Positions 3,704 to 50,214 of a stretch of 64,000 nt of DNA are shown in pieces. The DNA is from an uncultured Candidatus Saccharibacteria bacterium (GTDB lineage: Bacteria > Patescibacteriota > Doudnabacteria > UBA920). A model generated the notes under the pieces. That model searched no databases, was not told where the DNA came from, and saw only the letters and a list, made by a program, of their open reading frames with translations. Location: the NCBI GenBank assembly GCA_964436545.1, contig CAYTCJ010000006.1, forward strand, positions 4,729-68,728, read 5' to 3'. Position 1 is the first letter of the stretch, and each line of letters opens with the position of its first letter. Both the position numbers and the translations under genes were made by a program.

Positions 3704-3712
3704 AAGAACAGC

Positions 3713-3790
3713 GTTTAGGCTTTAGCGTTTAGTAAGTAGCCAAAACTGTATAATATTCCGGCTAAACGCTACTTACTACTTACTAAATGC
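3713..3790. repeat. intergenic imperfect inverted repeat built from TAGTAAGTAG / CTACTTACTA and GCGTTTAG / CTAAACGC blocks
   Basis: Read directly; related GTAAGT/ACTTAC low-complexity blocks recur in other intergenic spacers. Confidence 0.5.
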
Positions 3791-5308: not shown

Positions 5309-6199
5309 CTAATTTATTTCTTGATACAGTTTTTGTATAGCAATAGCCTTGCTGTCATTTCCAATTTCCACTAGCACCCCATTAATACCCATAGCCCCAG
5401 TCTCTTCCAGTTCATTCACAAATTTGGCATTAGGATCTAAAAATTTTACTAAAGCGTTTTCAAATTTTACACCCAAAGCGCTGTCCCGACTGCCAGTCAT
5501 GCCCACATCACTAACATAAGCAGTGCCGTTCTTCATTATATGCGCATCGGCAGTAGCCACATGCGTATGCGTCCCTACCACCACCGACACTCTACCATCT
5601 ACATAAAAACCCAGAGTCTTTTTTTCACTGGTAGCTTCGGCGTGGAAATCTATAAATATTATATCACCTTTTTGCGCTTCGTTCTTAAGTAACTTATCCA
5701 CTTCCCAAAACGGATTACCCAGCTTCCCATCAAAAAACTTTTCACAAAATACCTGCCCGTGAAGGTTAATAACTAGGAATTGTTGATTTTTCATCCTCCC
5801 CTCGCCCTGCTCATCAAGGAAGGGGGAAGATTTTTTTCCCTCCCCTTGGTGGGGAGGGATAGGGAGGGGGGTCAAATTTTTACTAAACCTATAGTACCCA
5901 AACCCGGGAAAACTACCTTCCAAATTAGCCGGACGAATCAGTTTTGGGTATTGTTCAAAACTGACTTTGGCTAATTCCGCTTTATCGAAAATATGATTGC
6001 CGGAAGTAAAACAATCTACTCCTAAGCTGTCAATTTCCGCTAAGGTGGAAGGCGTAACCCCTTTCCCGTGCGCAAGATTTTCTACGTTGATAATGGTGAC
6101 GTCTGGCTGATATTTTTCTTTCCACATAGGCAAAACCTGGGCGAGAATGTTTCGTCCAGGTTTACCCACCACATCACCGATGAATAAGATTTTTGCCAT
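5309..6199 (-). CDS. TIGR00282/YmdB-like metallophosphoesterase with in-frame GC-hairpin insertion
   Basis: MAKILFIGDVVG...GNH...THTHV motifs; extra segment PLPIPPHQGEGKKSSPFLDEQGEG encoded by 5795-5871. Confidence 0.8.
   Translation of the reverse strand: MAKILFIGDVVGKPGRNILAQVLPMWKEKYQPDVTIINVENLAHGKGVTPSTLAEIDSLGVDCFTSGNHIFDKAELAKVSFEQYPKLIRPANLEGSFPGFGYYRFSKNLTPLPIPPHQGEGKKSSPFLDEQGEGRMKNQQFLVINLHGQVFCEKFFDGKLGNPFWEVDKLLKNEAQKGDIIFIDFHAEATSEKKTLGFYVDGRVSVVVGTHTHVATADAHIMKNGTAYVSDVGMTGSRDSALGVKFENALVKFLDPNAKFVNELEETGAMGINGVLVEIGNDSKAIAIQKLYQEIN
5795..5871. repeat. composite family-B GC hairpin element inside ymdB-like CDS (core CCCTCCCC-ttggt-GGGGAGGG at 5838-5858)
   Basis: rc of 5838-5871 is near-identical to intergenic element 587-618. 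Confidence 0.75.
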
Positions 6200-6661: not shown

Positions 6662-8239
6662 TTACCTCGCATATTCTATTACTCTAGTTTCCCTAATCAC
6701 ATGCACTTTAATTTCCCCAGGGAATTTGAGTTCGTTCTGAATTTGATTGGCAATATCTCTAGCCATTTTTTGTGCACCAAAATCATCAACTCTTTCCGGA
6801 AACACAAACACACGAAGCTCTCGCCCGCCTTGAATGGCATAAGTTTTTTGCACACCTTCGTAACCGTTGGCAATATTTTCCAAGTCCGTAAGCCGTTTAA
6901 TATAGTTTTCCAAACTGTCTTTACGAGCCCCCGGACGACTTCCGGAAATATTATCGCACACGTCCACAATTACCGCTTCAATACTGGTAGCTCTCTGGGC
7001 CTTCCCCGATACATCGGTATCGTGGTGATGGCTGGCAATGGCCTCTTTGATTCTTTCGTCTAAACTGAATTTCTCCGCAATCTTCACGCCTAATTCCACA
7101 TGACTACCTTCCAAATCTTGGTCCAAAGCTTTGCCAATATCGTGAAGGAGCGCGCCTTGTTTAACAATATTTACATCCGCGCCTAATTCTTCGGCGAGCA
7201 ATGCGCCAATTTTGGCCATTTCCACACTGTGCCTTAAAATATTTTGCCCATAAGAGGTTCTAAACAACATCCTCCCCACCAAATGCACTAATTTTGGAGG
7301 GAAATTGGTAATACCCAATTCGTAAACGGCTTGTTCGCCGGCTTGTTTAATTTGCTCATTAATTTCCGCCTTGCTCTTCTCATAAGCCTCTTCTATTCTG
7401 GCCGGATGAATTCTGCCATCTACTAATAACTTTTCTAAAGTTAATTTGGCAATATGCCTTCTAATGGCATTAAAGCCCGAGAGCACCACGGTGTCCGGCG
7501 AATCATCTATTAAAATCTCCACGCCCATCATTTGTTCAAAAGCGCGAATATTTCTGCCTTCTTTACCAATAATTCTCCCTTTCATTTCTTCGCTGGGAAT
7601 TTGCACTACCGTGGTAGTAACTTCATTCGTCACTTCGCTCGATACTCTTTCCAAAGCTTGAGCGACTAAATCCCTCGCTTCTTTGTCTGCGGTTTCATAA
7701 GCTTCATTGAGTAATTTCTTTTGCAGATCCGCCATTTCCTCTCTCACCAATTTTTCCGCATTTTCCAAAAGTACTTTTTTGGCGTCTTCTCTGGAAAGTC
7801 CGGCAATTTTTTCCAAATTTTCCAACTGTTTTTGCTTGACCTGTTTGATTTCTTCTTGCAAAACTTTAATTTCTTCTTGCTTGTGTTCAATGTCTTGCTT
7901 GGCTTTGTCCAAATTTAAAGATTTGGTTTCCAAATCTTTTTCTTTTCTATCGACTCTTTCTTCAAACCTTACCATTTGCGCTCGAAAATCCATTTCTTGC
8001 TTTTTGGCACTCTCCACCATTTCCAAAGACTTGGCTTTGGCCTCTAACAGCATTTCTTTTTCTTTATTTTTTGCCTCATCTAAAATTCTTTCAGCCTTGG
8101 CTTCCGCGCTTCCAATTTTTTTGCCTGCCAAATGCTGACGAATGGCATAGCCTATCCCAATCCCTAACACAGTACCAACCACTAAATACATAAGCATTAA
8201 CATAAAAAATACCTTACATCGGCAATGTAAAGCTGGCAA
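6662..8239 (-). CDS. rny: ribonuclease Y (alternative start at 8203)
   Basis: N-terminal TM, long coiled coil, KH domain (GRIIGKEGRNIR), HD domain (LLHDIGK...HH). Confidence 0.9.
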   Translation of the reverse strand: MPALHCRCKVFFMLMLMYLVVGTVLGIGIGYAIRQHLAGKKIGSAEAKAERILDEAKNKEKEMLLEAKAKSLEMVESAKKQEMDFRAQMVRFEERVDRKEKDLETKSLNLDKAKQDIEHKQEEIKVLQEEIKQVKQKQLENLEKIAGLSREDAKKVLLENAEKLVREEMADLQKKLLNEAYETADKEARDLVAQALERVSSEVTNEVTTTVVQIPSEEMKGRIIGKEGRNIRAFEQMMGVEILIDDSPDTVVLSGFNAIRRHIAKLTLEKLLVDGRIHPARIEEAYEKSKAEINEQIKQAGEQAVYELGITNFPPKLVHLVGRMLFRTSYGQNILRHSVEMAKIGALLAEELGADVNIVKQGALLHDIGKALDQDLEGSHVELGVKIAEKFSLDERIKEAIASHHHDTDVSGKAQRATSIEAVIVDVCDNISGSRPGARKDSLENYIKRLTDLENIANGYEGVQKTYAIQGGRELRVFVFPERVDDFGAQKMARDIANQIQNELKFPGEIKVHVIRETRVIEYAR

Positions 8240-9853: not shown

Positions 9854-9923
9854 TGGATTATGAAGTATGAATTAAGAAGCAAGAATTATGAATAAGCAAA
9901 ACTTAATTCATAACTCACCCACT

Positions 9924-16185: not shown

Positions 16186-16225
16186 TTATATTTTTTGATT
16201 TGTTTAGTAGTTTAGTCTTTAGAGT

Positions 16226-16918
16226 TTAGATATTAAGCTTCGTGAGTGCATCTTCCGCAGCGGAAATTTCCGCCTCTTGTTTTGAAGGCCCACTACCCCG
16301 CCCAACTTCCGTATTGCCCACAAACGCGGCTAACACAAAAGTTTTATTATGGTCCGGACCGGTTTCACTAATTACCCCATAATGGGGAGTAATTCCGCTT
16401 TTTTCTTGCACTAATTCTTGCAAACGGGATTTCGGGTCCATATATTTTCCATCTTCAATAATATTATCCAATTCCACTAAAATTTCTCTGGCAATAAAAT
16501 TAGTGCAGGTTTGATATCCGCTATCCAAATACATTGCCCCAATTACCGCTTCAATGCAATTGGCTAAAATTACTTGTCTCGCACGGCCCACATCTTTGGC
16601 TTCACCTCTGGACATTTGTAAAAATTTTTCAAACCCCAAACGACTGGCAATTAAAGACAACATTTTATAGTTTACCAAAGCACTTCTAAAATTGGTCAGC
16701 TCGCCTTCGGGGTGACTGTAATTTTTATACAAATACTCGGTGGCACACAATTCCAAAACCGCATCCCCTAAAAATTCCAGTCGCTCATTATGAGGCAAAT
16801 GAAAACTTCGGTTCTCGTTCAAATAAGACCGATGAGTAAACGCGGAAATAAAAAAGTCCAAGTTATTGATTTTAGTTTGAAGAATGGTTTCTAATTCTTC
16901 TTTATTGATTTTAGGCAC
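16226..16918 (-). CDS. rnc: ribonuclease III
   Basis: ERLEFLGDAVLEL RNase III signature plus C-terminal dsRBD. Confidence 0.9.
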   Translation of the reverse strand: MPKINKEELETILQTKINNLDFFISAFTHRSYLNENRSFHLPHNERLEFLGDAVLELCATEYLYKNYSHPEGELTNFRSALVNYKMLSLIASRLGFEKFLQMSRGEAKDVGRARQVILANCIEAVIGAMYLDSGYQTCTNFIAREILVELDNIIEDGKYMDPKSRLQELVQEKSGITPHYGVISETGPDHNKTFVLAAFVGNTEVGRGSGPSKQEAEISAAEDALTKLNI

Positions 16919-17075
16919 GGATTAGAGTTAGGAATATAGAATTATGAGTTATGAGTATTTGTTCTACTTTGCCAAGGCTTCGTAGGACATTTCTTCGCTC
17001 TATAAATTTAAGCCTCAAATGTCTGTAAGAATAAGATTTATTTGATGCTTGCACTTCGTAGCTTCCGCGAAGAAG

Positions 17076-17150
17076 TGGTGGGCAGTGAAGGGATTGAACC
17101 TTCGACCCTCTCTACGTCAAAGAGATGCTCTACCACTGAGCTAACTGCCC
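17076..17150 (-). tRNA. tRNA-Val (anticodon GAC)
   Basis: Manual cloverleaf: acceptor GGGCAGT, D arm GCTCAGTGGTAGAGC, anticodon loop TTGACGT, T arm GAAGGTTCAATCCCTTC, encoded CCA. Confidence 0.8.
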
Positions 17151-17279
17151 AATATTGCAATCTTATATTTTATAATCCATTCAACCAATGGTGCGGGCCA
17201 AACTAAGCTACGTTCCCTCTAACTTCGTCAAAACTTCTTAGGATAAGAGGAGACTATAAACATAATAGTTATCTTCTTG

Positions 17280-17316
17280 TCCTCCGTAGCCTTGACGGAG
17301 GAGGAAGCTAACTGCC
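17280..17316. other. hairpin TCCTCCGTAGCCTTGACGGAGGA followed by a 12-nt duplicate (AGCTAACTGCCC) of the tRNA-Val 5' end
   Basis: Exact 12-mer also at 17139-17150 inside tRNA-Val. Confidence 0.4.
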
Positions 17317-17404: not shown

Positions 17405-19273
17405 TTATACCCCTTTCGGGTCACCAAACAAAATATGTTGTTGTAATTTTTCTTGGGGAATAATGTCTTTCACGAGCTCATGAAACTCTTCTTGTTCTAT
17501 AGTTTCTTTATCGATTAACTGCTGGGCGATTTTATTTAAATAATCTCGATATTTGGTTAAAATCTCCGTGGCTCGGTTAAAGCCTTCTGTCATAATCCGA
17601 TTAATTTCCGAATCGATCTTTCGGGCGATTTCCTCACTATAGTTTCTTTGTTCGTGCAAATCTTTACCTAAAAATACCATTTCTTGGTTATTACCTAAAG
17701 CCACCGGTCCCAATTCTTCGCTCATGCCATAAGCCATAATTAATTTTCTTGCCATACCGGTAGCCACTTTTAAATCATTACTGGCGCCGGTGGTGAGTTC
17801 GTTAAAAACCAATTTCTCCGCTGCATAACCACCCATTAAAGCTGCGATTTCATCCAAAAAACTGGATCGGGTATGCAAATGTTTATCTTCAAACGGCAAT
17901 TTCATAGTATAGCCCGCAGCTCTCCCTCGGGAAATTATCGACACTTTATGGACCGGATCGGAAAAAGCCAGCGCGCTACCCACTAAAGCATGCCCGCCTT
18001 CATGGAAAGCGGTAACTTCCTTTTCTTTCGGTGATAAAATATGACTCTTTCTTTCCGGTCCCAGCATCACTTTTTCCACGGCTTCCTTTAAATTTAGTTG
18101 GCTAATTTCTTTTTTATCTGCCCGAGCGGCTAAAATGGCCGCCTCATTCAAGATATTGGCTAAATCGGCGCCGGAAAAACCAGGCGTTCGCTCGGCGATT
18201 TTGCGCAAATTGGCATCTGTGGCCAAAGGTTTATTTTTGGCGTGAATTTGTAAAATCGCCTCTCTGTCCTTAATGTCCGGCAAATCCAAAACCACTTGTC
18301 TATCAAACCTACCCGGTCTAAGTAAAGCCGGATCTAACACATCGGGCCGGTTGGTGGCAGCCATCACAATCACATTGGTATCGTTCTCAAATCCATCCAT
18401 CTCCACTAAAATTTGGTTTAAGGTTTGTTCTCTTTCGTCATGCCCACCGCCTAAACCCGCCCCTCTTTGTCTGCCCACAGCGTCAATTTCATCTACAAAT
18501 ACAATGCAAGGCGCATTCTTTTTAGCTTTTTTAAATAAATCTCTCACTCTCGCAGCTCCCACCCCCACAAACATTTCTACAAATTCACTGCCGGAAATAT
18601 GAAAGAAGGGCACATTTGCCTCACCGGCTACGGCTCTCGCCAACAAAGTTTTACCCACGCCCGGACTACCCAACAACAACACGCCTTTGGGAATTTTAGC
18701 TCCCAGAGCTAAAAATTTTTGTGGGAATCTTAAAAAATCCACGACTTCTTTTAATTCTTCCTTAGCTTCCTTTACTCCGGCCACTTCGGAAAATTTTACT
18801 TTTATTTTATTCTCCTCGGTTAACCGAGCGCTAGATTGGCCAAAAGTTAACGCTCGATTATTGGCACCTTGCACGTTGCGCATTAAAAAATAAATAAATA
18901 AAGAAATTAATACAAAGGGCACTAAAAACGGCACAATGGAATCTAAAAATACCGCCCAACCGCTTTTATTAACATACCCGATTTGCAAATTTTTTAACTT
19001 TTCCGGTTCTACTCCGGTATTTTTAAAAAAATCCGTAATTTCCGTATATTTGCCCAAAATACTTACATACTTCACTTCCGTGTCTTTAATTTTTGCAGTG
19101 ACTTGGCTTTCACTTACTTCCACATACTCCACTTTACCTTGGTTAATTAGCTGACTTATTTCCGACATCTTCACATTTTTCACTTCATTTTTAGGCGAAA
19201 AAGCCTCAAACACAAAGGAGAGCAATAAAAATGCCAATAAAATATACAATAAATTTTTTATAATTTTACTCAT
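17405..19273 (-). CDS. ftsH: ATP-dependent zinc metalloprotease FtsH
   Basis: TM-periplasmic-TM N-term, AAA+ Walker A GPPGTGKT, SRH, HEGGHA zinc motif. Confidence 0.95.
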
Positions 19274-20654: not shown

Positions 20655-20741
20655 TGTTTTATTTTAAATAAAATATTCAAACCTCAATAGAAAATTTTGA
20701 CTTCAAAAAATTAAAAATTATATAATTTTAAATTTTCTATT

Positions 20742-26326: not shown

Positions 26327-27832
26327 TTATTCTGCCTTAGGCCTATACTGAATGGCTTCGCTTAAATGCCTGGCGGTAATTTGCTCTACCCCGGCTAAAT
26401 CGGCAATGGTTTTCGCCACTTTTAAAATACGGTGCAAAGACCGTCCGGAAAAATTATAAATTTTAGAAGCTTGCTTAAGCATAGCCTCGCCTTCCGCATC
26501 TAATTTGCAAAAGACTTTTAATTCCAATAAATTCATTTCGCTGTTGGTTTTTGGGTTCCCAAATCTGACTTGTTGAATTTGTCTGGCGGTTTCCACTCGG
26601 TGCTTAATGTCCGCGGAAGTCTCCGCTCCGGTTTCGGAGGCGATTTTTTCATAAGGGAGCCGGGGCACTTCCACGTGTAAATCAATTCTATCCAACAAAG
26701 GTCCGGAAATTTTCTTTTGATATTTAAAAATTTGTCCGGGTAAGCATTGGCACTTCTTGCTCGCATCGCCATAATACCCACACGGACAAGGATTTTGAGC
26801 GGCCACTAAAGTAAATTTGGCGGGGAACGTCCAGCTACCACTGGCCCGCGCCACCGTGACTATGCCATCTTCCAAGGGTTGCCTTAAGGCTTCCAGCACA
26901 TTTCTGGGGAACTCGGGAAACTCATCTAAAAATAAAATCCCTCTGTGCGATAAAGTAATTTCTCCGGGTCTGGGGTTTGCACCCCCACCTACCAAAGCCA
27001 CATTGGAAGTCGTATGATGTGGACTTCTTACCGGCCGACTGGAAATAAAACTTTCTTTTAATTTTCCCGCAATGCTATAAATTTTGGTTAATTCTAAAAC
27101 TTCTTCCAGTTTTAAATCGGGCAGAATGCCGGCCATTGCTCTGGCTAATAAAGTTTTCCCGCTTCCCGGCGGACCGGATAATAACACATTGTGGCCACCG
27201 GCTGCTGCAATTTCCAAAGCCCGTTTCGCCAATTCTTGCCCGGCCACATCTTTCATGTCCAATATGCTCTGCGGATTTTTAAATAACTGGTCTTGGGACT
27301 GGGGCTTAAGCGGGGAAATCGGGTTTAGCATTAACAAATGCTCGACTAACTGTTTTAAATTTTTTACCGGAAAAATTTTTACTCCGGCCACCAACCCCGC
27401 TTCTTGCGCATTAGCTTCGGGAATGAATAATTCTGCAATCCCTTGCTTTTGGGCTTTAATTGCTACCGCCAAGACCCCCGGCACAGCTCTTAGTTGACCA
27501 TCTAAAGACAACTCCCCCAAAAATAATTTAGCTTGAGTGTCAAAACTTACTTGCTCATAAGCCAAGAGAATTGCCAAGGCAATAGGCAAATCAAAATGCG
27601 TGCCCAATTTAGGCAAATCTGCCGGTGCCAAATTTACCGAGACCCGAGTTACCGGATATTCAGCCCCGGAATTTTTTATGGCATTTTTCACTCTCTCCTT
27701 ACTTTCCTGAACTGCGGTGTCGGGCAAGCCGACAATAATCGTATTGGTTAAACCATTACTCACCCCGGCTTCCACTTCTATTATTTCCGCATCCAAACCC
27801 ACAATTGTCGCAGAGAAAATTTTTGCAATCAC
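26327..27832 (-). CDS. YifB/ComM family Mg-chelatase-like AAA+ ATPase
   Basis: Lon-protease-like N domain, Walker A GPPGSGKT, C-terminal Mg-chelatase domain. Confidence 0.9.
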   Translation of the reverse strand: MIAKIFSATIVGLDAEIIEVEAGVSNGLTNTIIVGLPDTAVQESKERVKNAIKNSGAEYPVTRVSVNLAPADLPKLGTHFDLPIALAILLAYEQVSFDTQAKLFLGELSLDGQLRAVPGVLAVAIKAQKQGIAELFIPEANAQEAGLVAGVKIFPVKNLKQLVEHLLMLNPISPLKPQSQDQLFKNPQSILDMKDVAGQELAKRALEIAAAGGHNVLLSGPPGSGKTLLARAMAGILPDLKLEEVLELTKIYSIAGKLKESFISSRPVRSPHHTTSNVALVGGGANPRPGEITLSHRGILFLDEFPEFPRNVLEALRQPLEDGIVTVARASGSWTFPAKFTLVAAQNPCPCGYYGDASKKCQCLPGQIFKYQKKISGPLLDRIDLHVEVPRLPYEKIASETGAETSADIKHRVETARQIQQVRFGNPKTNSEMNLLELKVFCKLDAEGEAMLKQASKIYNFSGRSLHRILKVAKTIADLAGVEQITARHLSEAIQYRPKAE

Positions 27833-27884: not shown

Positions 27885-28319
27885 TTATGTCGATTTTGTC
27901 ATTTCCGTCGTTTTTGTCATTAATGAATAAACTAACAAAATTAAAATTCCTAAAATAATGTATCCATCGGCTAAATTAAAAACCCCATTAAAAAGATAAA
28001 TCCAATCTCTAACATAACCCAAAAATAATCTTTCCCCTACGTTAGACAGTCCGCCGGCCAAAATCAAACCCCATGCAATTGTTTCGCCAATGCGAAACTT
28101 AAAATAATTTTGCAAGATATAAACCGTCATAACACTCATTACCAAAAAATAAATTACATACATTAAACTTGTCGGCACCGGCAAACTAAAAGCAAACTGA
28201 TAATTTTTAAACTGATCGGGTGTCCAATGTTTGGTAATTTGATCCAATAAAATTAAACTAAAAAAAACACCCAACCCAGTTAAAAAAACTTTGGGTTTAG
28301 GTATTTGATTATTTCTCAT
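27885..28319 (-). CDS. lspA: lipoprotein signal peptidase II
   Basis: 4 TM helices; VRDWIYLFNG..FNLAD signature. Confidence 0.8.
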   Translation of the reverse strand: MRNNQIPKPKVFLTGLGVFFSLILLDQITKHWTPDQFKNYQFAFSLPVPTSLMYVIYFLVMSVMTVYILQNYFKFRIGETIAWGLILAGGLSNVGERLFLGYVRDWIYLFNGVFNLADGYIILGILILLVYSLMTKTTEMTKST

Positions 28320-28320
28320 T

Positions 28321-28378
28321 AGAAATTAGAAATTACTTGTCCCCCAAAGCCTTGGCGAAGGGGGAGAAATTAGAAATT
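28321..28378. repeat. GC hairpin TCCCCC-aaagccttggcgaa-GGGGGA (28340-28366) flanked by 14-bp direct repeats AGAAATTAGAAATT
   Basis: Direct repeats at 28321-28334 and 28365-28378 read directly; looks like a target-site duplication around a small inserted hairpin. Confidence 0.55.
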
Positions 28379-28391
28379 CATTTAGCCTTGG

Positions 28392-28709
28392 CTAAATGCT
28401 CCTATCTGCCCAAGGTAAAACTTCCAGTCTCTCTTTGGCAATTGGCTGTCCATCATCATCTGTGCCATAAGTTCCTTGCTCCATCTTTCGCAGTGCTTTA
28501 GCGATTTTTTCCAAATCTTGAGACACTTTGCTTTTTATGCTCAAATGTAATTCATCTTCTTCGGCTTCTTTGGCATTGTCATCATCCCGACTCCCCAGTT
28601 CGGTGTGTTCCGGTAACAACTCCAATTCCTGCGTTAATCGAGCTTGTTCACTTAACAAGTGAACTTTCATTTTTTCTAAAAATGTTTTGTCTAAATGTGT
28701 ATTTGTCAT
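28392..28709 (-). CDS. DksA/TraR-family protein lacking the C4 zinc-finger cysteines
   Basis: C-terminal region matches the DksA family pattern but has Asp in place of the zinc-finger Cys (GTYGTDDDGQPIAKERLEVLPWADRS). Confidence 0.5.
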   Translation of the reverse strand: MTNTHLDKTFLEKMKVHLLSEQARLTQELELLPEHTELGSRDDDNAKEAEEDELHLSIKSKVSQDLEKIAKALRKMEQGTYGTDDDGQPIAKERLEVLPWADRSI

Positions 28710-28740
28710 AAAAATATTATATGCTTTTCTCTTATAAAAT

Positions 28741-28990
28741 GCAAAAGCGCCCGGGTCACGGGCGTTCCAATAAAAAAATTATATGAACGGTGACACAGGG
28801 CGCTAAACCCGAAACCTCGGATCTTTCACCGCTCTACATTTTAAAGCTTAACTTTTAAGCGCTAAAACGTAGAGCAGTAAACGACACTTCACAGATTTCA
28901 GGCCTTCTCGATATAACATCGAGAGAAGCGTCTGAAGTCCAATCTGGTTTTCAAACAACACTCTAGGCTTTCCTTAAGGTCTTTCGACCA
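28741..28990 (-). ncRNA. candidate structured leader RNA or small RNA ending in an intrinsic terminator (28745-28765) about 35 nt upstream of the dksA-like start
   Basis: 250-nt non-coding stretch with several internal hairpins; terminator GCGCCCGTGACCCGGGCGC+TTTTGC on minus strand; identity not established. Confidence 0.25.
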
Positions 28991-39526: not shown

Positions 39527-40360
39527 TTATCGATATTGATTAATTTCATCTCGGAGTTTTTTTGCTTCTTCTTGAGGGTTATTTGCAAAAATTATCCCGC
39601 GGGAGGAGTTAATAATCATGCCTAATTTTTGTGAATTGATGCCCGCTTTAACCACCGCTTCTACATCTCCACCTTGGGCGCCCACTCCCGGCACTAACAA
39701 AGTCATATCACCCACTATTGCCCGAACCACCTTCATTTCCTCAGGGTAAGTGGCGCCCACCACCAGCATACAATTGTGGTTATAATTCCAGTCTTGGGAT
39801 ACTTTTTCTGCCACCATTTGCCAAATGGATTTCACCCCTCCCTTACCCTCCCCATCTAGGGGAGGGAACGGCACACAAAGATCTTGCAATTCTCCGGCTC
39901 CGGGATTAGAAGTCCGACAGAGAATAATCGATGCTTTATCTGCCCTGTCTAAAAATGGTTTTAAGGCTTCTTTGCCTAAGTACGGATGTAAAGTAATCGC
40001 ATCAAAACCCATTTCATCAAATACCGCTTTCACATAACCTAAATTAGTATTGCCAATATCCGCCCGTTTGGCATCACATATGGTTAAAACATCCGGATAT
40101 TTATTCTGCAAATAATTTATGGTCATTTTTAACTCTTTTAAACCCTGTTCACCTCTGGCTTCATAAAATGCCATGTTGGGCTTAAAGGCAGAAACAAATT
40201 CTACAGTCTCATCTATTATCCATTTATTAAACTCAAACTGAGGAAACTCTTTGGCTTTAAAATCGGCAGGAATTTTTTCAAACTCACTATCTAAACCCAC
40301 ACACACTAAAGAATTAACTTTTTTGGCTCTTAAATTATATTTTTCAATATTTTGATGCAT
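39527..40360 (-). CDS. pyrF: orotidine 5'-phosphate decarboxylase (long type) with in-frame GC-hairpin insertion
   Basis: LVCVGLDSE, MAFYEA motifs; inserted PFPPLDGEGKGG encoded by 39834-39866. Confidence 0.85.
   Translation of the reverse strand: MHQNIEKYNLRAKKVNSLVCVGLDSEFEKIPADFKAKEFPQFEFNKWIIDETVEFVSAFKPNMAFYEARGEQGLKELKMTINYLQNKYPDVLTICDAKRADIGNTNLGYVKAVFDEMGFDAITLHPYLGKEALKPFLDRADKASIILCRTSNPGAGELQDLCVPFPPLDGEGKGGVKSIWQMVAEKVSQDWNYNHNCMLVVGATYPEEMKVVRAIVGDMTLLVPGVGAQGGDVEAVVKAGINSQKLGMIINSSRGIIFANNPQEEAKKLRDEINQYR
39834..39866. repeat. family-B element CCCCTCCCTTACCCTCCCC-atcta-GGGGAGGG, 33 bp, in-frame in pyrF
   Basis: Near-identical to 587-618; length divisible by 3. Confidence 0.8.
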
Positions 40361-44020: not shown

Positions 44021-45835
44021 TTATATATACTGGTCGCCCCAATCGTTTTGAAACAAAATAACATCATTCGGCTGTAAAAGATTTTTTAATTCCGCATGAG
44101 CTTGTTCTGCACTATTAAACCATATAATAATTGGTAAGTTGTAAGTTGTAAGTTGTAAGTTCTCTCTCTTGCTTAATTCATAATTCTTAATTCCTAATTC
44201 TATGTATCCAGTTACGCTATTCCTAATAAGTATAACCACATCTGCCACCTTTGCCAACTGCTTGCCAATCTCTAAATGGACTGTTTTTACTTCACTCCCT
44301 GTTTCCACCAACCCCGGAGTAATATAAATTTTTCTTCGGTTAGGAAACTGAGCCAAAGTTTTTATGGCTTCTTTGACCCCAACTGAATTCCCATTATACG
44401 CATCATCAATCACCAAAATATTTCCCGGTCTTAAAATAGGTTCTAAACGATGCTTCACAGGTTGAATTTTTTCTATACCTTGTTTGATTGCTTCGTTACT
44501 CATACCCAACTCTCTCGCTATGCTTATAGCGCAGTCCACATCTCCAAGTGCATACTCTCCAAGTAATTTTACAAAAATTTTCACTCCCTTTCCTTCTTCT
44601 CCTGAATTAAAGTTTCCTCTTTCTCCTTCTTCTCCTGAATTAAAGTCTCCTCTTTCTCCTTCCCGCCGTGAATTAGAGCTTTCTCTTTCTCCTTCTTTTT
44701 CTGAATTAAAGTTTCCTCTTTCTCTTTCTTCTCCTGAATTAGAGCTTTCTCTTTCTCCTTCCCCTCCTATATTAGTGTTGCCCCTCGCTTCTTCCCCCCC
44801 TATATTAGGGGGGGTTAGGGGGGGTATTTCCAATTCCCAACCTAATCTCACTGCATCAAACTTTGCATGTTTGATATTTGATATTTGATATTTGATATTT
44901 TTTTGCTTGGGTAAAATATAATTTTGATAATTCTCCACAACATTTTCATCGTCCCCATTTAATAAACAGAGTGCATCCGCTTTGGCATTTTGCACAATTT
45001 CAAAAATGGTTTGCGTAACTGCTTTTATACTGCCCATTCTTTCCAAATGCGCTTCGCTAATCCCTGTCACTACCGCCATATCCGGTTTCACCAAACTGCA
45101 AATGGCTTTTATGTCGCCTTTGTAGTGCTCCCCCATTTCGATAATAGCAATTTCAATATTTTCTTCTCCCTTTAGGGGAGAAGGTGCCTGCGGGGCAGAT
45201 GAGGGGTTGGGGGCATTAAAATTTTTCAACACCCACCTCGCTATCCCGACCGGCGTATTCACACTCTCCGGTGTGGCAAACACCTGAAACCTCAAACCCA
45301 AAACCGCTTTCAAAACTTCCTTCATAGTCGTCTTACCATAACTTCCGGCAATCCCAATAATCGACAGCTCTTTACGGGCTGTCGCCCCGGGCGAGTGCAT
45401 CCGAGACCCGAGATCCGGTGCCACAGTCAAACTTTGAATTTTTGATTTAGCCTTATAAATAATTACCTGTTTTAATAACCAATCCACTGGCCATAAAATT
45501 ACTATCCCGATTAAATAAAAAATAAAAAATAAAAAATAAAAAATTAACAAATAAACAAACCCTAAAAACCATAATTCATAATTCTTAATTCCTAATTCTG
45601 GCAAGCGGTCTAAAAACTTCCAGAAAATTAACCATGGCAGAGTTAGATAAAGCCCGATTGCCAATAACAAAATTAGGGTCGCTTTTCCTGTCCAGACTAA
45701 ACTCTTTCTCATGGGCGCCTTGGGTGGAAAATACCCTTTTTGCCGGAGTAACTTTAAATACCGTCCCAGCTCGTAATTTTCCAGCTGTAAAAGATAAAGT
45801 TGATATTTAATGATTTTTATAAGATTTACTAACAT
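44021..45835 (-). CDS. Mur ligase family protein (MurF-like by ddl adjacency) with atypical N-terminal TM extension, internal 13-aa tandem repeats and GC-hairpin insertions
   Basis: GIAGSYGKTTMKE P-loop, Mur ligase middle and C domains; N-terminal 150 aa hydrophobic; true start uncertain. Confidence 0.65.
   Translation of the reverse strand: MLVNLIKIIKYQLYLLQLENYELGRYLKLLRQKGYFPPKAPMRKSLVWTGKATLILLLAIGLYLTLPWLIFWKFLDRLPELGIKNYELWFLGFVYLLIFYFLFFIFYLIGIVILWPVDWLLKQVIIYKAKSKIQSLTVAPDLGSRMHSPGATARKELSIIGIAGSYGKTTMKEVLKAVLGLRFQVFATPESVNTPVGIARWVLKNFNAPNPSSAPQAPSPLKGEENIEIAIIEMGEHYKGDIKAICSLVKPDMAVVTGISEAHLERMGSIKAVTQTIFEIVQNAKADALCLLNGDDENVVENYQNYILPKQKNIKYQISNIKHAKFDAVRLGWELEIPPLTPPNIGGEEARGNTNIGGEGERESSNSGEERERGNFNSEKEGERESSNSRREGERGDFNSGEEGERGNFNSGEEGKGVKIFVKLLGEYALGDVDCAISIARELGMSNEAIKQGIEKIQPVKHRLEPILRPGNILVIDDAYNGNSVGVKEAIKTLAQFPNRRKIYITPGLVETGSEVKTVHLEIGKQLAKVADVVILIRNSVTGYIELGIKNYELSKRENLQLTTYNLPIIIWFNSAEQAHAELKNLLQPNDVILFQNDWGDQYI
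44105..44132. repeat. GTAAGTT x4 tandem heptamer inside the Mur ligase 3' region
   Basis: Read directly. Confidence 0.7.
44172..44203. repeat. 28-bp direct repeat TAATTCATAATTCTTAATTCCTAATTCT, copy 1 (copy 2 at 45568-45598); both inside the Mur ligase ORF, both encode LGIKNYEL
   Basis: Exact 28-mer identity read directly. Confidence 0.85.
44581..44830. repeat. about five tandem ~39-bp repeats encoding 13-aa GE(E/R)G.R..(N/S)(F/S)NS units, followed by C7/G7 hairpin CCCCCCCTATATTAGGGGGGG
   Basis: Read directly; in-frame in Mur ligase. Confidence 0.8.
45163..45183. repeat. family-B-like hairpin CTTCTCCC-ttta-GGGGAGAAG in-frame in Mur ligase (encodes SPLKGEE)
   Basis: 8-bp stem. Confidence 0.6.
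45568..45598. repeat. 28-bp direct repeat copy 2 (see 44172-44203)
   Basis: Exact identity. Confidence 0.85.
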
Positions 45836-45871: not shown

Positions 45872-46801
45872 CTAAATAAATTTAGCTAAAATTTTTACAA
45901 ACTCCTCAGGCTGATCCAAAAAACTATAATGTCCGGCATTCTTTAAAATTAGCAATTGGGAATTGGGAATTAAAAAATTCATTCGCTTCCCAAAAGCAAT
46001 TGGCGTATCCTTGTCGTCCTCGCCGGTAATTATCAAAGTTGGGATTGTAATATCCTTCATATCCTTACTTAAATCTTCGTTCACCACTTTTAAAAAAGTT
46101 TCCTTTAACGCGGGTAGAGCTAAATAATCTTCTGCCCCCAGGCTATGATAAATTTTTTTTCTCAAACCTTGCATGAATCCCGGTTTAAAAATCGGTTTAA
46201 TAATTTTAGCCACAACGCCCATTAAATTTTTTTTCCAGGCTGATGTAACAAACCCAGCGCTATCAACTAAAACCAATTTTAATATCACCCCCTGTCCCCC
46301 TCTTATTTTAAGAGGGGGGAACGGATTCGGGAGATTTGACATAGCGCACAGCTTAATTCCTACCCGCCCACCAAAACTGTGCCCCACTATAATGACATTT
46401 TTTAATGCCAACTTTTCTATAAACGCTTTGACAATTTCCGCGTAATCCCCCACACTCATTCCGTATTTTATTTCCTCTCCCTTGTGGGGAGGGTTAGAGC
46501 CTGCCCTGAGCGATAGCCGAATGGGGAGGGGGGAATCTCCAAACCCCGGCAAATCCAAAGCATAAATTGTGTACTGCTGATTTACTGACTGGCTAATTAA
46601 CTTACTAACTTCCCCCCACACTTCCTTACTACTCCCCCAACCATGCAAAAACAACAAACACTTATCGCCTGTCGATTGTGTGCCTACATAACTAATTAAT
46701 TGGTTATTGATAATTATTTGATTTTTTTCCATAAACATATAATACATTGCCCAATAGCTATTTACAATATATAATATCCAAGTAAAAATGGAATGTAGCA
46801 T
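45872..46801 (-). CDS. alpha/beta-hydrolase-fold protein with two in-frame GC-hairpin insertions
   Basis: HGWGSS, GHSFGG nucleophile elbow, C-terminal GHYSF; insertions at 46287-46324 and 46474-46540. Confidence 0.75.
   Translation of the reverse strand: MLHSIFTWILYIVNSYWAMYYMFMEKNQIIINNQLISYVGTQSTGDKCLLFLHGWGSSKEVWGEVSKLISQSVNQQYTIYALDLPGFGDSPLPIRLSLRAGSNPPHKGEEIKYGMSVGDYAEIVKAFIEKLALKNVIIVGHSFGGRVGIKLCAMSNLPNPFPPLKIRGGQGVILKLVLVDSAGFVTSAWKKNLMGVVAKIIKPIFKPGFMQGLRKKIYHSLGAEDYLALPALKETFLKVVNEDLSKDMKDITIPTLIITGEDDKDTPIAFGKRMNFLIPNSQLLILKNAGHYSFLDQPEEFVKILAKFI
46287..46324. repeat. GC hairpin CCCCCTCTT-atttt-AAGAGGGGGG in-frame in hydrolase (encodes NPFPPLKIRGGQG)
   Basis: 9-bp stem. Confidence 0.7.
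46474..46540. repeat. composite GC hairpins CCTCTCCC-ttgt-GGGGAGGG ... GGGGAGGGGGG in-frame in hydrolase (encodes ...NPPHKGEEI...)
   Basis: Read directly. Confidence 0.65.
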
Positions 46802-48732: not shown

Positions 48733-50214
48733 ATGATTATATCTAAAAGAATTAATCTAATTAATCTCTGCCGAATATTTTTTTTATTATTTCTATTCTC
48801 AATCTTTTTTCCTATTCGTTATGTCTTCCCTACCTCGGAAAGCTATATTACTGGGCTTTATTCAGACTTTACTACTTTTTCCTTATATTTAAGCGATATA
48901 TTCTTATTTATTGCTTTTTTCTTTATTTTGTGGTATAATTATAAATATTTTATTGAATTCATTGTTAATTGTAAATTGCTAGTTGCTTTATGGATTTGGC
49001 TTATATTAGCCATTTTTATTTTTAATCCGCATATCTCAGGTTTAAATTTTTGGTCATTTTTTAAGTTTTTTGAACTCATTGTTGTTGCATATGGAACAAT
49101 TAAGGCAATTTTCAATTATCAATTTTCAATTTCGAAATCTTGGTTTTTAGGCATGTTCATATTATTAGGCACGGTTCAATCAATAATTGGGCTAATGCAA
49201 TTTCTTAAACAAGCGCCAATTGGCCTAAGTAAATTAGGAGAGCAACAAATTTACCCTTATTTAAGCGGAGTAGCCAAAATAGTTTCAGGTGGAACAATCT
49301 ATATTCGTGCCTATGGCACCTTTCCTCATCCTAATATTTTGAGTGTTTTTTTGTTAGTTGCAATATTTTTGCTTATTCATCTTTCGTTAAATCAGCAAAA
49401 ACCTAATTTAACAAGCAACTTATTCTCTAAGCACTACTCTCTCATCACTAAAATTATCCTTAATTTAGCGCTTTTTATAAATATCCTTGGTTTGACTGTC
49501 ACTTTTTCACGTGGAGCATTCTTAGCTTTAGGGTTAGGATTATTGGTATTTTTTGGACTACTGGCTTATTGGCTCAAAAAGCCTGTCATTCTGAACTCGT
49601 TTCAGAACCTAGATTCCAGATCGGTCCGCCCACTGGCAGACAGCATGACAAAAAACCTAAAAGTAGTTGCCATTAATATACTTTTAGCTTTAGCTGTGGC
49701 ATTTTTAATTTTCAAACCTTTTCTCCTTTCACGTGCCACAATTTCCGATCAAGCTACAATAGAAAGAAAAATTTACAACCAAACAGCCAGAAACATGATT
49801 AAAGCTAATCCGGTTATTGGCAAGGGAGCAGGGGAGAGTCTGCTTCATATGGAACAATATAGCCCAGTTAAACTAAAACCGTGGCAAATTCAGCCGATTC
49901 ATAACTATTTTTTGCTATCTGCCTCAGAGATTGGAATATTTGGGTCTCTAATTTTAATTTTGGTATTTCTCTCTCATCTGTTTGGAATTTGGAATTTAAA
50001 AATTTGGGATTTATTTAAAAATTGGAAATTAGAAATTAGAAATTTAAAAACCAGCTTTTACCGCCTAACTCTTTTTACCATCTTAATATGTTTTATAATA
50101 TTAATGCTCTTTGACCATTACTTTTATACCATTCAATCTACCCAAATGCTCTTATGGATGACTTTGGGAATAATTGCATCCACAAAAGAAAATGAAATTA
50201 ATCAAAATCCTTGA
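48733..50214 (+). CDS. O-antigen ligase/polymerase-like (Wzy_C) polytopic membrane protein
   Basis: About 12 TM helices, periplasmic loop with SRGAF.ALGLG motif. Confidence 0.6.
   Translation: MIISKRINLINLCRIFFLLFLFSIFFPIRYVFPTSESYITGLYSDFTTFSLYLSDIFLFIAFFFILWYNYKYFIEFIVNCKLLVALWIWLILAIFIFNPHISGLNFWSFFKFFELIVVAYGTIKAIFNYQFSISKSWFLGMFILLGTVQSIIGLMQFLKQAPIGLSKLGEQQIYPYLSGVAKIVSGGTIYIRAYGTFPHPNILSVFLLVAIFLLIHLSLNQQKPNLTSNLFSKHYSLITKIILNLALFINILGLTVTFSRGAFLALGLGLLVFFGLLAYWLKKPVILNSFQNLDSRSVRPLADSMTKNLKVVAINILLALAVAFLIFKPFLLSRATISDQATIERKIYNQTARNMIKANPVIGKGAGESLLHMEQYSPVKLKPWQIQPIHNYFLLSASEIGIFGSLILILVFLSHLFGIWNLKIWDLFKNWKLEIRNLKTSFYRLTLFTILICFIILMLFDHYFYTIQSTQMLLWMTLGIIASTKENEINQNP

Follow-up and report, generated by a model that had tools for sequence, protein, structure and literature searches.

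A 30-nt hairpin unit that probably split a heptamer array upstream of lspA, and its relatives in uncultured bacteria

Introduction

Do two identical repeats on either side of a GC-rich hairpin record the duplication of a target site by a mobile element? This question is posed by a 64,000-nt stretch of DNA from an uncultured Candidatus Saccharibacteria bacterium (contig CAYTCJ010000006.1, positions 4,729 to 68,728; hereafter the window, whose own numbering is used), in which the exact 14-mer AGAAATTAGAAATT occurs at 28321-28334 and again at 28365-28378, flanking a 30-nt GC-rich unit just upstream of lspA. The original prediction, made from the sequence alone, took the 14-mers for the footprint of a recently inserted MITE-like element (MITE, miniature inverted-repeat transposable element). 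Our analysis leads to a different interpretation. We consider it highly probable that the 30 bp are a copy of a short, non-autonomous, dispersed hairpin element that landed in the middle of a pre-existing array of AATTTCT heptamers, and that the two 14-mers are the halves of this array.

Results

Layout of the locus

The unit lies in a 72-nt spacer between a DksA/YteA-like gene and lspA. The features of the locus are as follows.

27885..28319, minus strand: lspA (signal peptidase II, 144 aa; Pfam PF01252 Peptidase_A8, E 4.6e-16; NCBIfam lspA, E 3.9e-15)
28321..28334, minus strand: proximal half of the split array (AATTTCT x2, sense), assigned from the sequence and from the unsplit array in relatives
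28335..28364, minus strand: 30-nt unit, an insertion relative to related genomes, CCCCC-TTC-GCCAAGGC-TTT-GGGGG-ACAAGT, in which a 5-bp C/G clamp encloses a conserved interior and the 3' tag ACAAG stays unpaired
28365..28378, minus strand: distal half of the split array (AATTTCT x2, sense), assigned from the sequence and the alignment
28392..28709, minus strand: DksA/YteA-like gene, 105 aa (NCBIfam yteA, E 7e-13; dksA, E 1e-10; neither reaches its curated cut-off)
28764..28748, then 28745..28716, minus strand: terminator-like hairpin and, after it, a sigma-70-like promoter, both upstream of the DksA-like gene (consensus scan only)

The unit reads ACTTGTCCCCCAAAGCCTTGGCGAAGGGGG on the forward strand of the window, where the locus from 28317 runs ...CAT/TAGAAATTAGAAATT/ACTTGTCCCCCAAAGCCTTGGCGAAGGGGG/AGAAATTAGAAATT/CATTTAGCCTTGGCTAAATG..., and on the sense strand the whole spacer is TAG-CCAAGGCTAAATG / AATTTCT AATTTCT / CCCCCTTCGCCAAGGCTTTGGGGGACAAGT / AATTTCT AATTTCT / A-ATG. 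Both repeats are exact and directly abut the unit, as originally described, but the 32 letters first quoted for the unit ran 2 nt into the second repeat and its true length is 30. The proximal half-array continues into the lspA start codon as ...TTTCTAATG; the four AATTTCT copies end in TAATG, where the stop TAA overlaps the ATG, and Tandem Repeats Finder reports a period of 7 with 2.6 copies at 28318-28335. No Shine-Dalgarno sequence is evident before lspA. The locus is identical in a second sequencing run (L001). Across the window the 14-mer has three exact copies, namely the flanking pair and 50031-50044, and 13 matches at ≤2 mismatches where 3.3 are expected, a number reached in 0 of 100 shuffles; at ≤3 mismatches the 30-mer has no second match in the window. 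The promoter-like site at 28745..28716 is the likely start of the transcription unit that holds the unit. Given its place upstream of the DksA-like gene, the spacer is probably intercistronic and not a 5' untranslated region standing by itself; in other respects the context is as first described.

Relatives without the hairpin

What does the spacer look like in relatives? The closest LspA homologs, sought among 5.8 billion proteins, are 68% (L082) and 66% (L083) identical, and that of a third locus, the outgroup L084, is 53% identical. All three loci keep the DksA-like gene followed by lspA, and all are without the GC hairpin. In L082 and L083 a 35-nt spacer holds three tandem heptamers (TAG-CTAAGGCTAAATG-AATTTCT-AATTTTT-AATTTCT-A-ATG), and in L084 the spacer holds about 4.6 (TAA-AATTTCA-AATTCCA-AATTTCT-AATTTCA-AATT-ATG); two loci more distant than L084 are without heptamers. 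Aligned with its nearest relative, the window spacer shows one clean gap of 37 nt, equal to the 30-nt unit plus one heptamer, and not 44 nt. These alignments indicate that the heptamer array is older than the hairpin, that its copy number drifts, and that the net duplication at lspA is 0 to 7 bp, not 14. Because the outgroup L084 is without the hairpin, we interpret the latter as a gain in the window's lineage. GTDB species genomes queried with the ComM-like gene (26327-27832, minus strand) gave a best match of 58% identity, and no close relative or empty site.

The comparison bears directly on the idea that a MITE-like element entered a single AGAAATTAGAAATT and duplicated 14 bp. Such an event would account for two exact 14-mers abutting a unit that is an insertion relative to the relatives, yet it calls for an empty site of two heptamers and a length difference of 44 nt, whereas the hairpin-less sites hold 3 to about 4.6 tandem heptamers and the difference is 37 nt. 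Tandem copies in relatives lacking the hairpin are essentially the outcome that the original prediction had named as speaking against itself. With the family insertions described below, which are exactly 30 nt long and carry no duplication, and with no terminal inverted repeats beyond the clamp, we find a 14-bp duplication scarcely credible.

Could the hairpin instead be ancestral and have been deleted precisely in the relatives? Direct repeats around a hairpin favour slippage deletion, and there are only two independent empty lineages, since L082 and L083 are nearly identical at the site. However, two independent precise losses would be needed, one of them in the outgroup; a deletion between the 14-mers would leave two heptamers, not 3 or 4.6; and the patchy presence of the unit in typA genes whose products are 86-92% identical, together with a nested copy, shows that the family makes gains. 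We judge ancestral presence followed by loss to be very unlikely.

A dispersed family of 30-nt units

JGI metagenome contigs were scanned with the pattern CCCCCNNNGCCAAGGCNNNGGGGG, derived from the window copy. At least 120 contigs carry the 30-nt unit, with a GC content of 31-77% among the matches listed, for which the consensus is CCCCC-TTC-GCCAAGGC-T[T/A]C-GGGGG-[A/G]CA[A/G]G. This is a real family and not a collection of chance matches, because the N positions of the pattern are conserved where chance matches would be random; the window copy equals the consensus at 10 of the 11 positions that the pattern leaves free. In a profile of 118 distinct copies, the information content upstream of the unit is no higher than background; it climbs with the first C and drops to the background level again past position 29. 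From this profile, the unit as it exists at the population level is the segment inserted at lspA, ACAAG tail included. The expectation that the mobile unit can be defined at this locus is therefore borne out, both by the insertion relative to relatives and by the agreement of its boundaries with those of conservation in the family. A hidden Markov model of the family finds the window copy with an nhmmer E of 1.4e-10, a value with some circularity, since this copy had supplied the search pattern.

Copies are found between genes and, within open reading frames (ORFs), in each of the six frames; among these ORFs are those for YchF, DnaK (in its C-terminal tail) and Fmt. The hosts include metagenome-assembled genomes (MAGs) of Patescibacteria and Alphaproteobacteria, one host lineage being Rickettsiales-like. 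Fifteen viral contigs carry the unit, and a query of the PLSDB plasmids with the 30-nt consensus returned no full-length copy. All six frames of the unit are free of stop codons; as the chance estimate for a random 30-mer of such composition is ~23%, this is not evidence of adaptation. A second, diverged copy lies in the window itself.

17275..17304, minus strand: CCTCC-TCC-GTCAAGGC-TAC-GGAGG-ACAAGA; nhmmer E 0.034

This copy is intergenic, between an ORF (17405-19273) and a tRNA (17079-17150), both of its arms carry a compensatory change, and its predicted DNA fold has -7.6 kcal/mol (z -4.5).

A period-7 run is found in the flank of 8 of 138 copies of the unit and at 41 of 2700 random positions, figures that are suggestive only; heptamer arrays may be a preferred target. 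Copies beside or inside heptamer arrays occur in L213 (3220-3249), L105 (308-337, minus orientation), L192 (984) and L188 (1958). In L213 the array (GAACAGA)n stands on both sides, and the clear cases of a split array are the window and this contig. In four contigs of high-GC organisms from one sample (L114, L119, L145 and L163) the 30-mer forms the core of a longer palindrome, AGCGCGCCCGC-[unit]-GCAGGGAGGTCGCGCT. L117 has two copies, at 7460 and 7798, with common flanks that end in GGCCTAACG, which may resemble an integron attC core. Upstream of a gene in L128 (8798-8861) two family units stand in tandem, the first with the core CCCCCTTCGTTAAAACTACGGGGGACAAGG instead of ...GCCAAGGC...; this differing core implies that the family is broader than the search pattern.

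Filled and empty sites in ychF and typA

Two independent cases in protein-coding genes allow the length of the inserted segment to be read directly. In the YchF of Berkelbacteria-like bacteria a 10-aa insert, xLRQG[Y/F]GGQA, is present in 5 of 20 homologs and the other 15 show a clean 10-column gap. At the DNA level the empty site is AAT CCC|GAG GAA, and filled sites are exactly 30 nt longer with no duplicated flank. In Alphaproteobacteria/Rickettsiales-like MAGs, TypA proteins that are 86-92% identical differ by exactly 10 aa, DLSPEALAKG; the empty site ACC GAT GCG corresponds to the filled site ACC G[ACTTGTCCCCCGAAGCCTTGGCGAAGGGGG]AC GAA, again with no duplication, and the insert equals the window 30-mer except for two letters of the internal loop. 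One typA allele (L227) carries a second 30-nt family copy nested at the centre of the first, GAAGCC|...|TTGGCA. The aligned filled and empty sites show the family inserting as a 30-nt unit without target duplication. Short duplications around other copies, for which a search was initially suggested, are absent from the ychF and typA insertions. MITE-like in the strict sense is also an ill-fitting description for a 30-nt unit that has no terminal inverted repeats beyond a 5-bp clamp and leaves no duplication behind.

These exact gains lead us to ascribe the additional heptamer at lspA to slippage of the array rather than to the insertion. An insertion that doubled the middle heptamer of a three-heptamer array, a 7-bp duplication, would also explain why the nearest relatives have three heptamers and the window 2+2, with a net gain of 30+7 nt. 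Against it, the number of heptamers varies anyway (~4.6 in L084), as slippage would give, and a gain of 30+7 nt would break the reading frame, whereas the ychF and typA inserts are exactly 10 codons without a duplicated flank. A 7-bp duplication is therefore improbable in our estimation.

Side by side, the ychF inserts of L222, L223, L224 and L181 begin with the codon CCC, CAC, CTC or CGC (Pro, His, Leu or Arg), which varies at its second base. Together with it, the synonymous third base of a Gly codon 18 nt downstream varies (GGG, GGC, GGA and GGC), and the stem is thereby kept paired in three of the four lineages. From these paired changes, structure at the nucleotide level appears to constrain a protein-coding segment.

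Fold and covariation of the stem

In the predicted fold of the unit, the 5-bp C/G clamp is followed inwards by a 3x3 internal loop and then by a short inner stem of GC/GC. Variant arms change on both sides (CCTCC/GGAGG, CCGCC/GGCGG and CCACC/GGTGG). In a partly hand-picked alignment of 23 sequences, arm position 3 displays all four Watson-Crick pairs (U-A 9, C-G 6, G-C 6 and A-U 1), and overall 98.8% of cells are paired, compared with 89.3% in shuffles, a level that 0 of 500 shuffles reach; sliding the partner column by one lowers pairing to 55-60%. An unbiased subset of 11 hits, picked on loops and tail only, has at least 4 of 5 arm pairs in 11 of 11, and eight of these have 5 of 5 together with non-C5 arms. 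The unpaired interior and the tag are conserved in sequence, which suggests that what is recognized is a hairpin together with particular bases.

Might the hairpin then be a regulatory RNA of the host, an attenuator or a processing or stabilizing signal of lspA, either evolved at the site or recruited there, and not selfish DNA? It sits inside a probable operon just before a start codon, the spacer with the unit folds above shuffles (-18.6 kcal/mol, z -2.5), and the stem covaries across the family. Yet no U-tract follows the stem, the terminator scan passes over the unit, and there is no Rfam match; relatives manage without the hairpin; and the occurrence of the 30-mer in all six frames of unrelated genes and at unrelated intergenic sites is explained by no locus-specific function. 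We give such a role in place of mobility very little weight. An intrinsic terminator was also considered and rejected: the stem is followed by ACAAGUAAUUUCU, with no U-tract, and the scan reports the neighbouring AT-rich hairpin instead. At the gathering threshold, Rfam 15 finds only tRNAs in the window, and a permissive search of 28200-28500 gives nothing better than E 0.4.

The AT-rich hairpin beside the array

A further hairpin adjoins the distal half-array.

28379..28398, minus strand: AT-rich hairpin CATTTAGC-CAAG-GCTAAATG, spanning the stop codon of the DksA-like gene (28392-28394); terminator-like by scan

Its predicted RNA fold has -8.5 kcal/mol (z -4.5). It is present in L082 and L083 as GCTAAGGCT and absent in the outgroup L084. 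The 9-mer GCCAAGGCT is common to this hairpin and the 30-nt unit, within a shared stretch TT-GCCAAGGCT. A local tandem duplication of a 44-nt block, comprising the older hairpin and two heptamers, with later divergence of the hairpin part, would explain why both hairpins hold GCCAAGGCT and are each followed by AATTTCTAATTTCT on the sense strand. It fails to explain why the flanks are identical at 14 of 14 positions when the hairpin parts agree at only ~12 of 21, why the unit fits an external family consensus including an ACAAG tag that the older hairpin does not have, and why the relatives have GCTAAGGCT in the older hairpin without a second copy. Of all the origins considered for the unit, we hold this duplication the least believable.

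As a speculation, the AT-rich hairpin could be an old, decayed copy of the family; only the core matches, and the nhmmer E is 45. GCCWWGGC was tried as a family motif and discarded: its 11 sites in the window exceed the 3.6 expected, yet the remaining ones belong to ordinary coding sequence and have no hairpin context.

Heptamer arrays in the window

Exact period-7 runs number seven in the window where 0.05 are expected, and none is found for periods 8-15. Tandem arrays, each with its own unit, occupy short spacers before start codons at the following positions.

1814-1832
3710-3785
9857-9893
16202-16230
16942-16956
20706-20720
28318-28378, the array at lspA

Read in the direction of the downstream gene, ten of the 11 intergenic heptamer arrays contain TAA or TAG, and six of the 11 end ≤23 nt from its start. 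With TAA or TAG in a 7-nt unit, three copies put a stop in every frame. Tandem heptamers are also found at other Patescibacteria loci.

Within the window, heptamer arrays further occur inside long ORFs: at 44134-44200, 44870-44900 and 45513-45598 in the Mur-ligase-like ORF 44021-45835, and at 49106-50044 in the ORF 48733-50214. The frame reads through them, giving peptide sequences like NIKYQISNIK and WKLEIRNLK. Inserts of a similar kind, derived from heptamers (NPKSEILNPKQIQNSKSEIRN), appear in the YchF alignment for other lineages of the Candidate Phyla Radiation (CPR).

Discussion

We propose a model in which the unit CCCCCTTCGCCAAGGCTTTGGGGGACAAGT (sense strand) would have inserted within the AATTTCT array that fills the spacer between the DksA-like gene and lspA, splitting this array into the two 14-mers. 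The unit may move as a hairpin-forming single strand, and its cutting and joining may be carried out in trans by an enzyme encoded elsewhere, as proposed for repetitive extragenic palindromic (REP) elements and HUH/Y1 transposases. HUH/Y1 transposition of the IS200/IS605 type leaves no duplication, and in this respect the family matches it; nevertheless, an HUH-type route specifically is on this analogy a possibility that we would call rather unlikely. Being 30 nt long and free of stops in six frames, the unit can also survive within essential genes, where it adds 10 residues. Its effect at lspA is most likely neutral, or that of a modest structured block in an otherwise unstructured leader that has no Shine-Dalgarno sequence.

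A number of observations weigh against this interpretation. The apparent copy number in this genome is low, the 64 kb holding a single good copy and a single diverged one, and the fold of the unit is no stabler than that of composition-matched shuffles (DNA -4 kcal/mol, z ~0; RNA -13 kcal/mol, z -1.3). The covariation alignment kept those variants in which four or more of the five arm pairs are formed, and some rows were chosen after their pairing had been seen. A single old insertion may be the source of the ychF copies, which hence count as one event, the empty lspA site comes from two independent lineages only, and three heptamers in the nearest relative against four in the window leave room for a 7-bp duplication at this locus. 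The four known targets (TTTCT^AATTT, AATCC^CGAG, TTCGT^CGGT and CCAAG^GCTTC) have no common motif, unlike those of IS200/IS605 elements, which insert 3' of a fixed tetra- or pentanucleotide. Moreover, phmmer found no IS200-type TnpA-like ORF in the window or at the family loci, although this is a weak test. In favour of the interpretation, on the other hand, no neighbouring gene family recurs at 135 loci when all ORFs within 4 kb of the copies are clustered; the only clusters near these copies are, going by their motifs, what we take to be ABC ATPases, response regulators and EF-G-like GTPases.

How does the family relate to known systems? The known REP families are species- or genus-specific and abundant. 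The unit resembles them as an imperfect palindrome of 20-40 nt whose tag, at one end, is unpaired, in its scattered and partly intragenic copies, and in being non-autonomous. It differs in that a nearly constant 30-mer spans Patescibacteria and Alphaproteobacteria and appears sparse per genome, and in its tag, which is [A/G]CA[A/G]G (ACAAG in the window) and not GTAG or CGTC; GTAG is found in the family only within the internal loop of TAC variants, on the reverse strand. A survey of REPs describes the GTAG- and CGTC-tagged superfamilies as well as intragenic REPs such as RPE-4 and RPE-6 of Rickettsia (Di Nocera et al. 2013, PMC3733652). Mobilization by REP-associated tyrosine transposases (RAYT) of the HUH type has been proposed for GTAG REPs, and CGTC REPs are also found without a dedicated transposase (PMC3733652). 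The family sequence is absent from this survey. In its architecture the family is REP-like, and it is set apart by its tag, by the lack of any linked transposase in our searches and by the constancy of its sequence across phyla.

A likeness to Rickettsia palindromic elements (RPEs) resides in the in-frame inserts in conserved genes, here YchF, TypA (exactly 10 aa), the DnaK tail and Fmt. RPE-1 elements are ~100-150 nt long, AT-rich and known only from Rickettsia, whereas here a GC-rich unit of 30 nt crosses phyla. GC clusters and GC-rich palindromes of yeast, fungal, placozoan and algal mitochondria are short dispersed hairpins in AT-rich DNA, polymorphic between relatives and sometimes located within coding regions, and some classes of yeast GC clusters have short AT-rich target duplications. 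They are similarly short, GC-rich and dispersed, but they are organellar and their sequences are unrelated to the family. MITEs have terminal inverted repeats that match those of a parent insertion sequence, generate target-site duplications and are usually at least 50 nt long (roughly 50-500 bp). Like them, the family is short, non-autonomous and dispersed; unlike them, it has a unit of 29-30 nt, a 5-bp clamp only, no duplication and no parent element that we could find.

The flanking 14-mers have counterparts of their own. TAACTGA heptamer repeats are known from Beggiatoaceae, Cyanobacteria and Bacteroidetes, and split sets of them have been tabulated (MacGregor 2015, PMC4679880). With these repeats and the cyanobacterial short tandemly repeated repetitive (STRR) sequences, the window arrays have in common heptamers placed a few nt before start codons in forward orientation, stops in all frames and, for the most part, the lack of a Shine-Dalgarno sequence. 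They differ in that each array has its own heptamer (AATTTCT, TCATAAT, TCTAAAC and others) instead of one genome-wide word, and in that their host belongs to the Patescibacteria, a group not mentioned in PMC4679880.

A limited literature search retrieved no paper with the family core sequence or its peptide translations and none linking palindromic elements to the CPR, and the family is seemingly undescribed. The near-constant sequence across hosts of 31-77% GC would point either to frequent horizontal spread, for which there are copies on phage contigs, or to recognition by a widely conserved enzyme.

The window also contains a second hairpin family, with the plan [C-rich arm][2-4 nt][C-rich arm][loop][G-rich arm], of which CCCTCCCTATCCCTCCCCATAAAGGGGAGGGA is one instance. 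Its copies, several of them in frame within housekeeping genes, are located as follows.

1-32
51-72
196-239
588-619
5837-5868
39836-39866
44794-44824
46288-46318

In PyrF (39527-40360) this family forms an in-frame 11-aa insert, PFPPLDGEGKG, by comparison with PDB 3qw3, and a YmdB-like phosphoesterase (5309-6199), set against PDB 4b2o, is longer by ~29 residues, LTPLPIPPHQGEG among them. An alpha/beta hydrolase-like ORF and the Mur-ligase-like ORF are affected as well; in the latter, a 33-nt repeat of 5.4 copies (44591-44768) encodes GEGERESSNSGEE-like units beside a hairpin. Between the atpE and atpF genes of a GTDB Patescibacteria genome (L002, 890-1010) there is a double-C-arm hairpin (CCCCCTCTAACTCCCCCTAATCTAGGGGG), itself part of a longer, imperfect inverted repeat made up of ACGACTAAC-like units.

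What are the implications of these observations? At the widest, and with somewhat less than even confidence, we suggest an undescribed cross-phylum family of active, ACAAG-tagged hairpins of 30 nt that enters intergenic DNA, essential genes and its own copies, with no target duplication and no linked transposase, and whose sequence may have been held nearly constant by frequent horizontal spread or through recognition by a widely conserved enzyme; together with the second hairpin family and the heptamer arrays, it could quite generally supply the proteins of Patescibacteria and other uncultured bacteria with lineage-specific inserts of 10 residues. In heptamer-rich genomes, flanking direct repeats must not be taken as a target-site duplication. 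The family offers a defined and easily searchable case of very small selfish DNA, one that crosses phyla, places 10 residues in frame in essential genes, nests within itself and keeps its stem by compensatory change. It opens the question of which enzyme mobilizes tagged hairpins without a linked transposase, a question that applies equally to REPs of the CGTC type. Finally, it bears on the origin of short lineage-specific inserts in the housekeeping proteins of uncultured bacteria, and on how many small 'hypothetical proteins' of metagenome annotation, with peptides such as LRQGYGGQA, SPFAKASGDK and PRSLGEGG, are translated elements.

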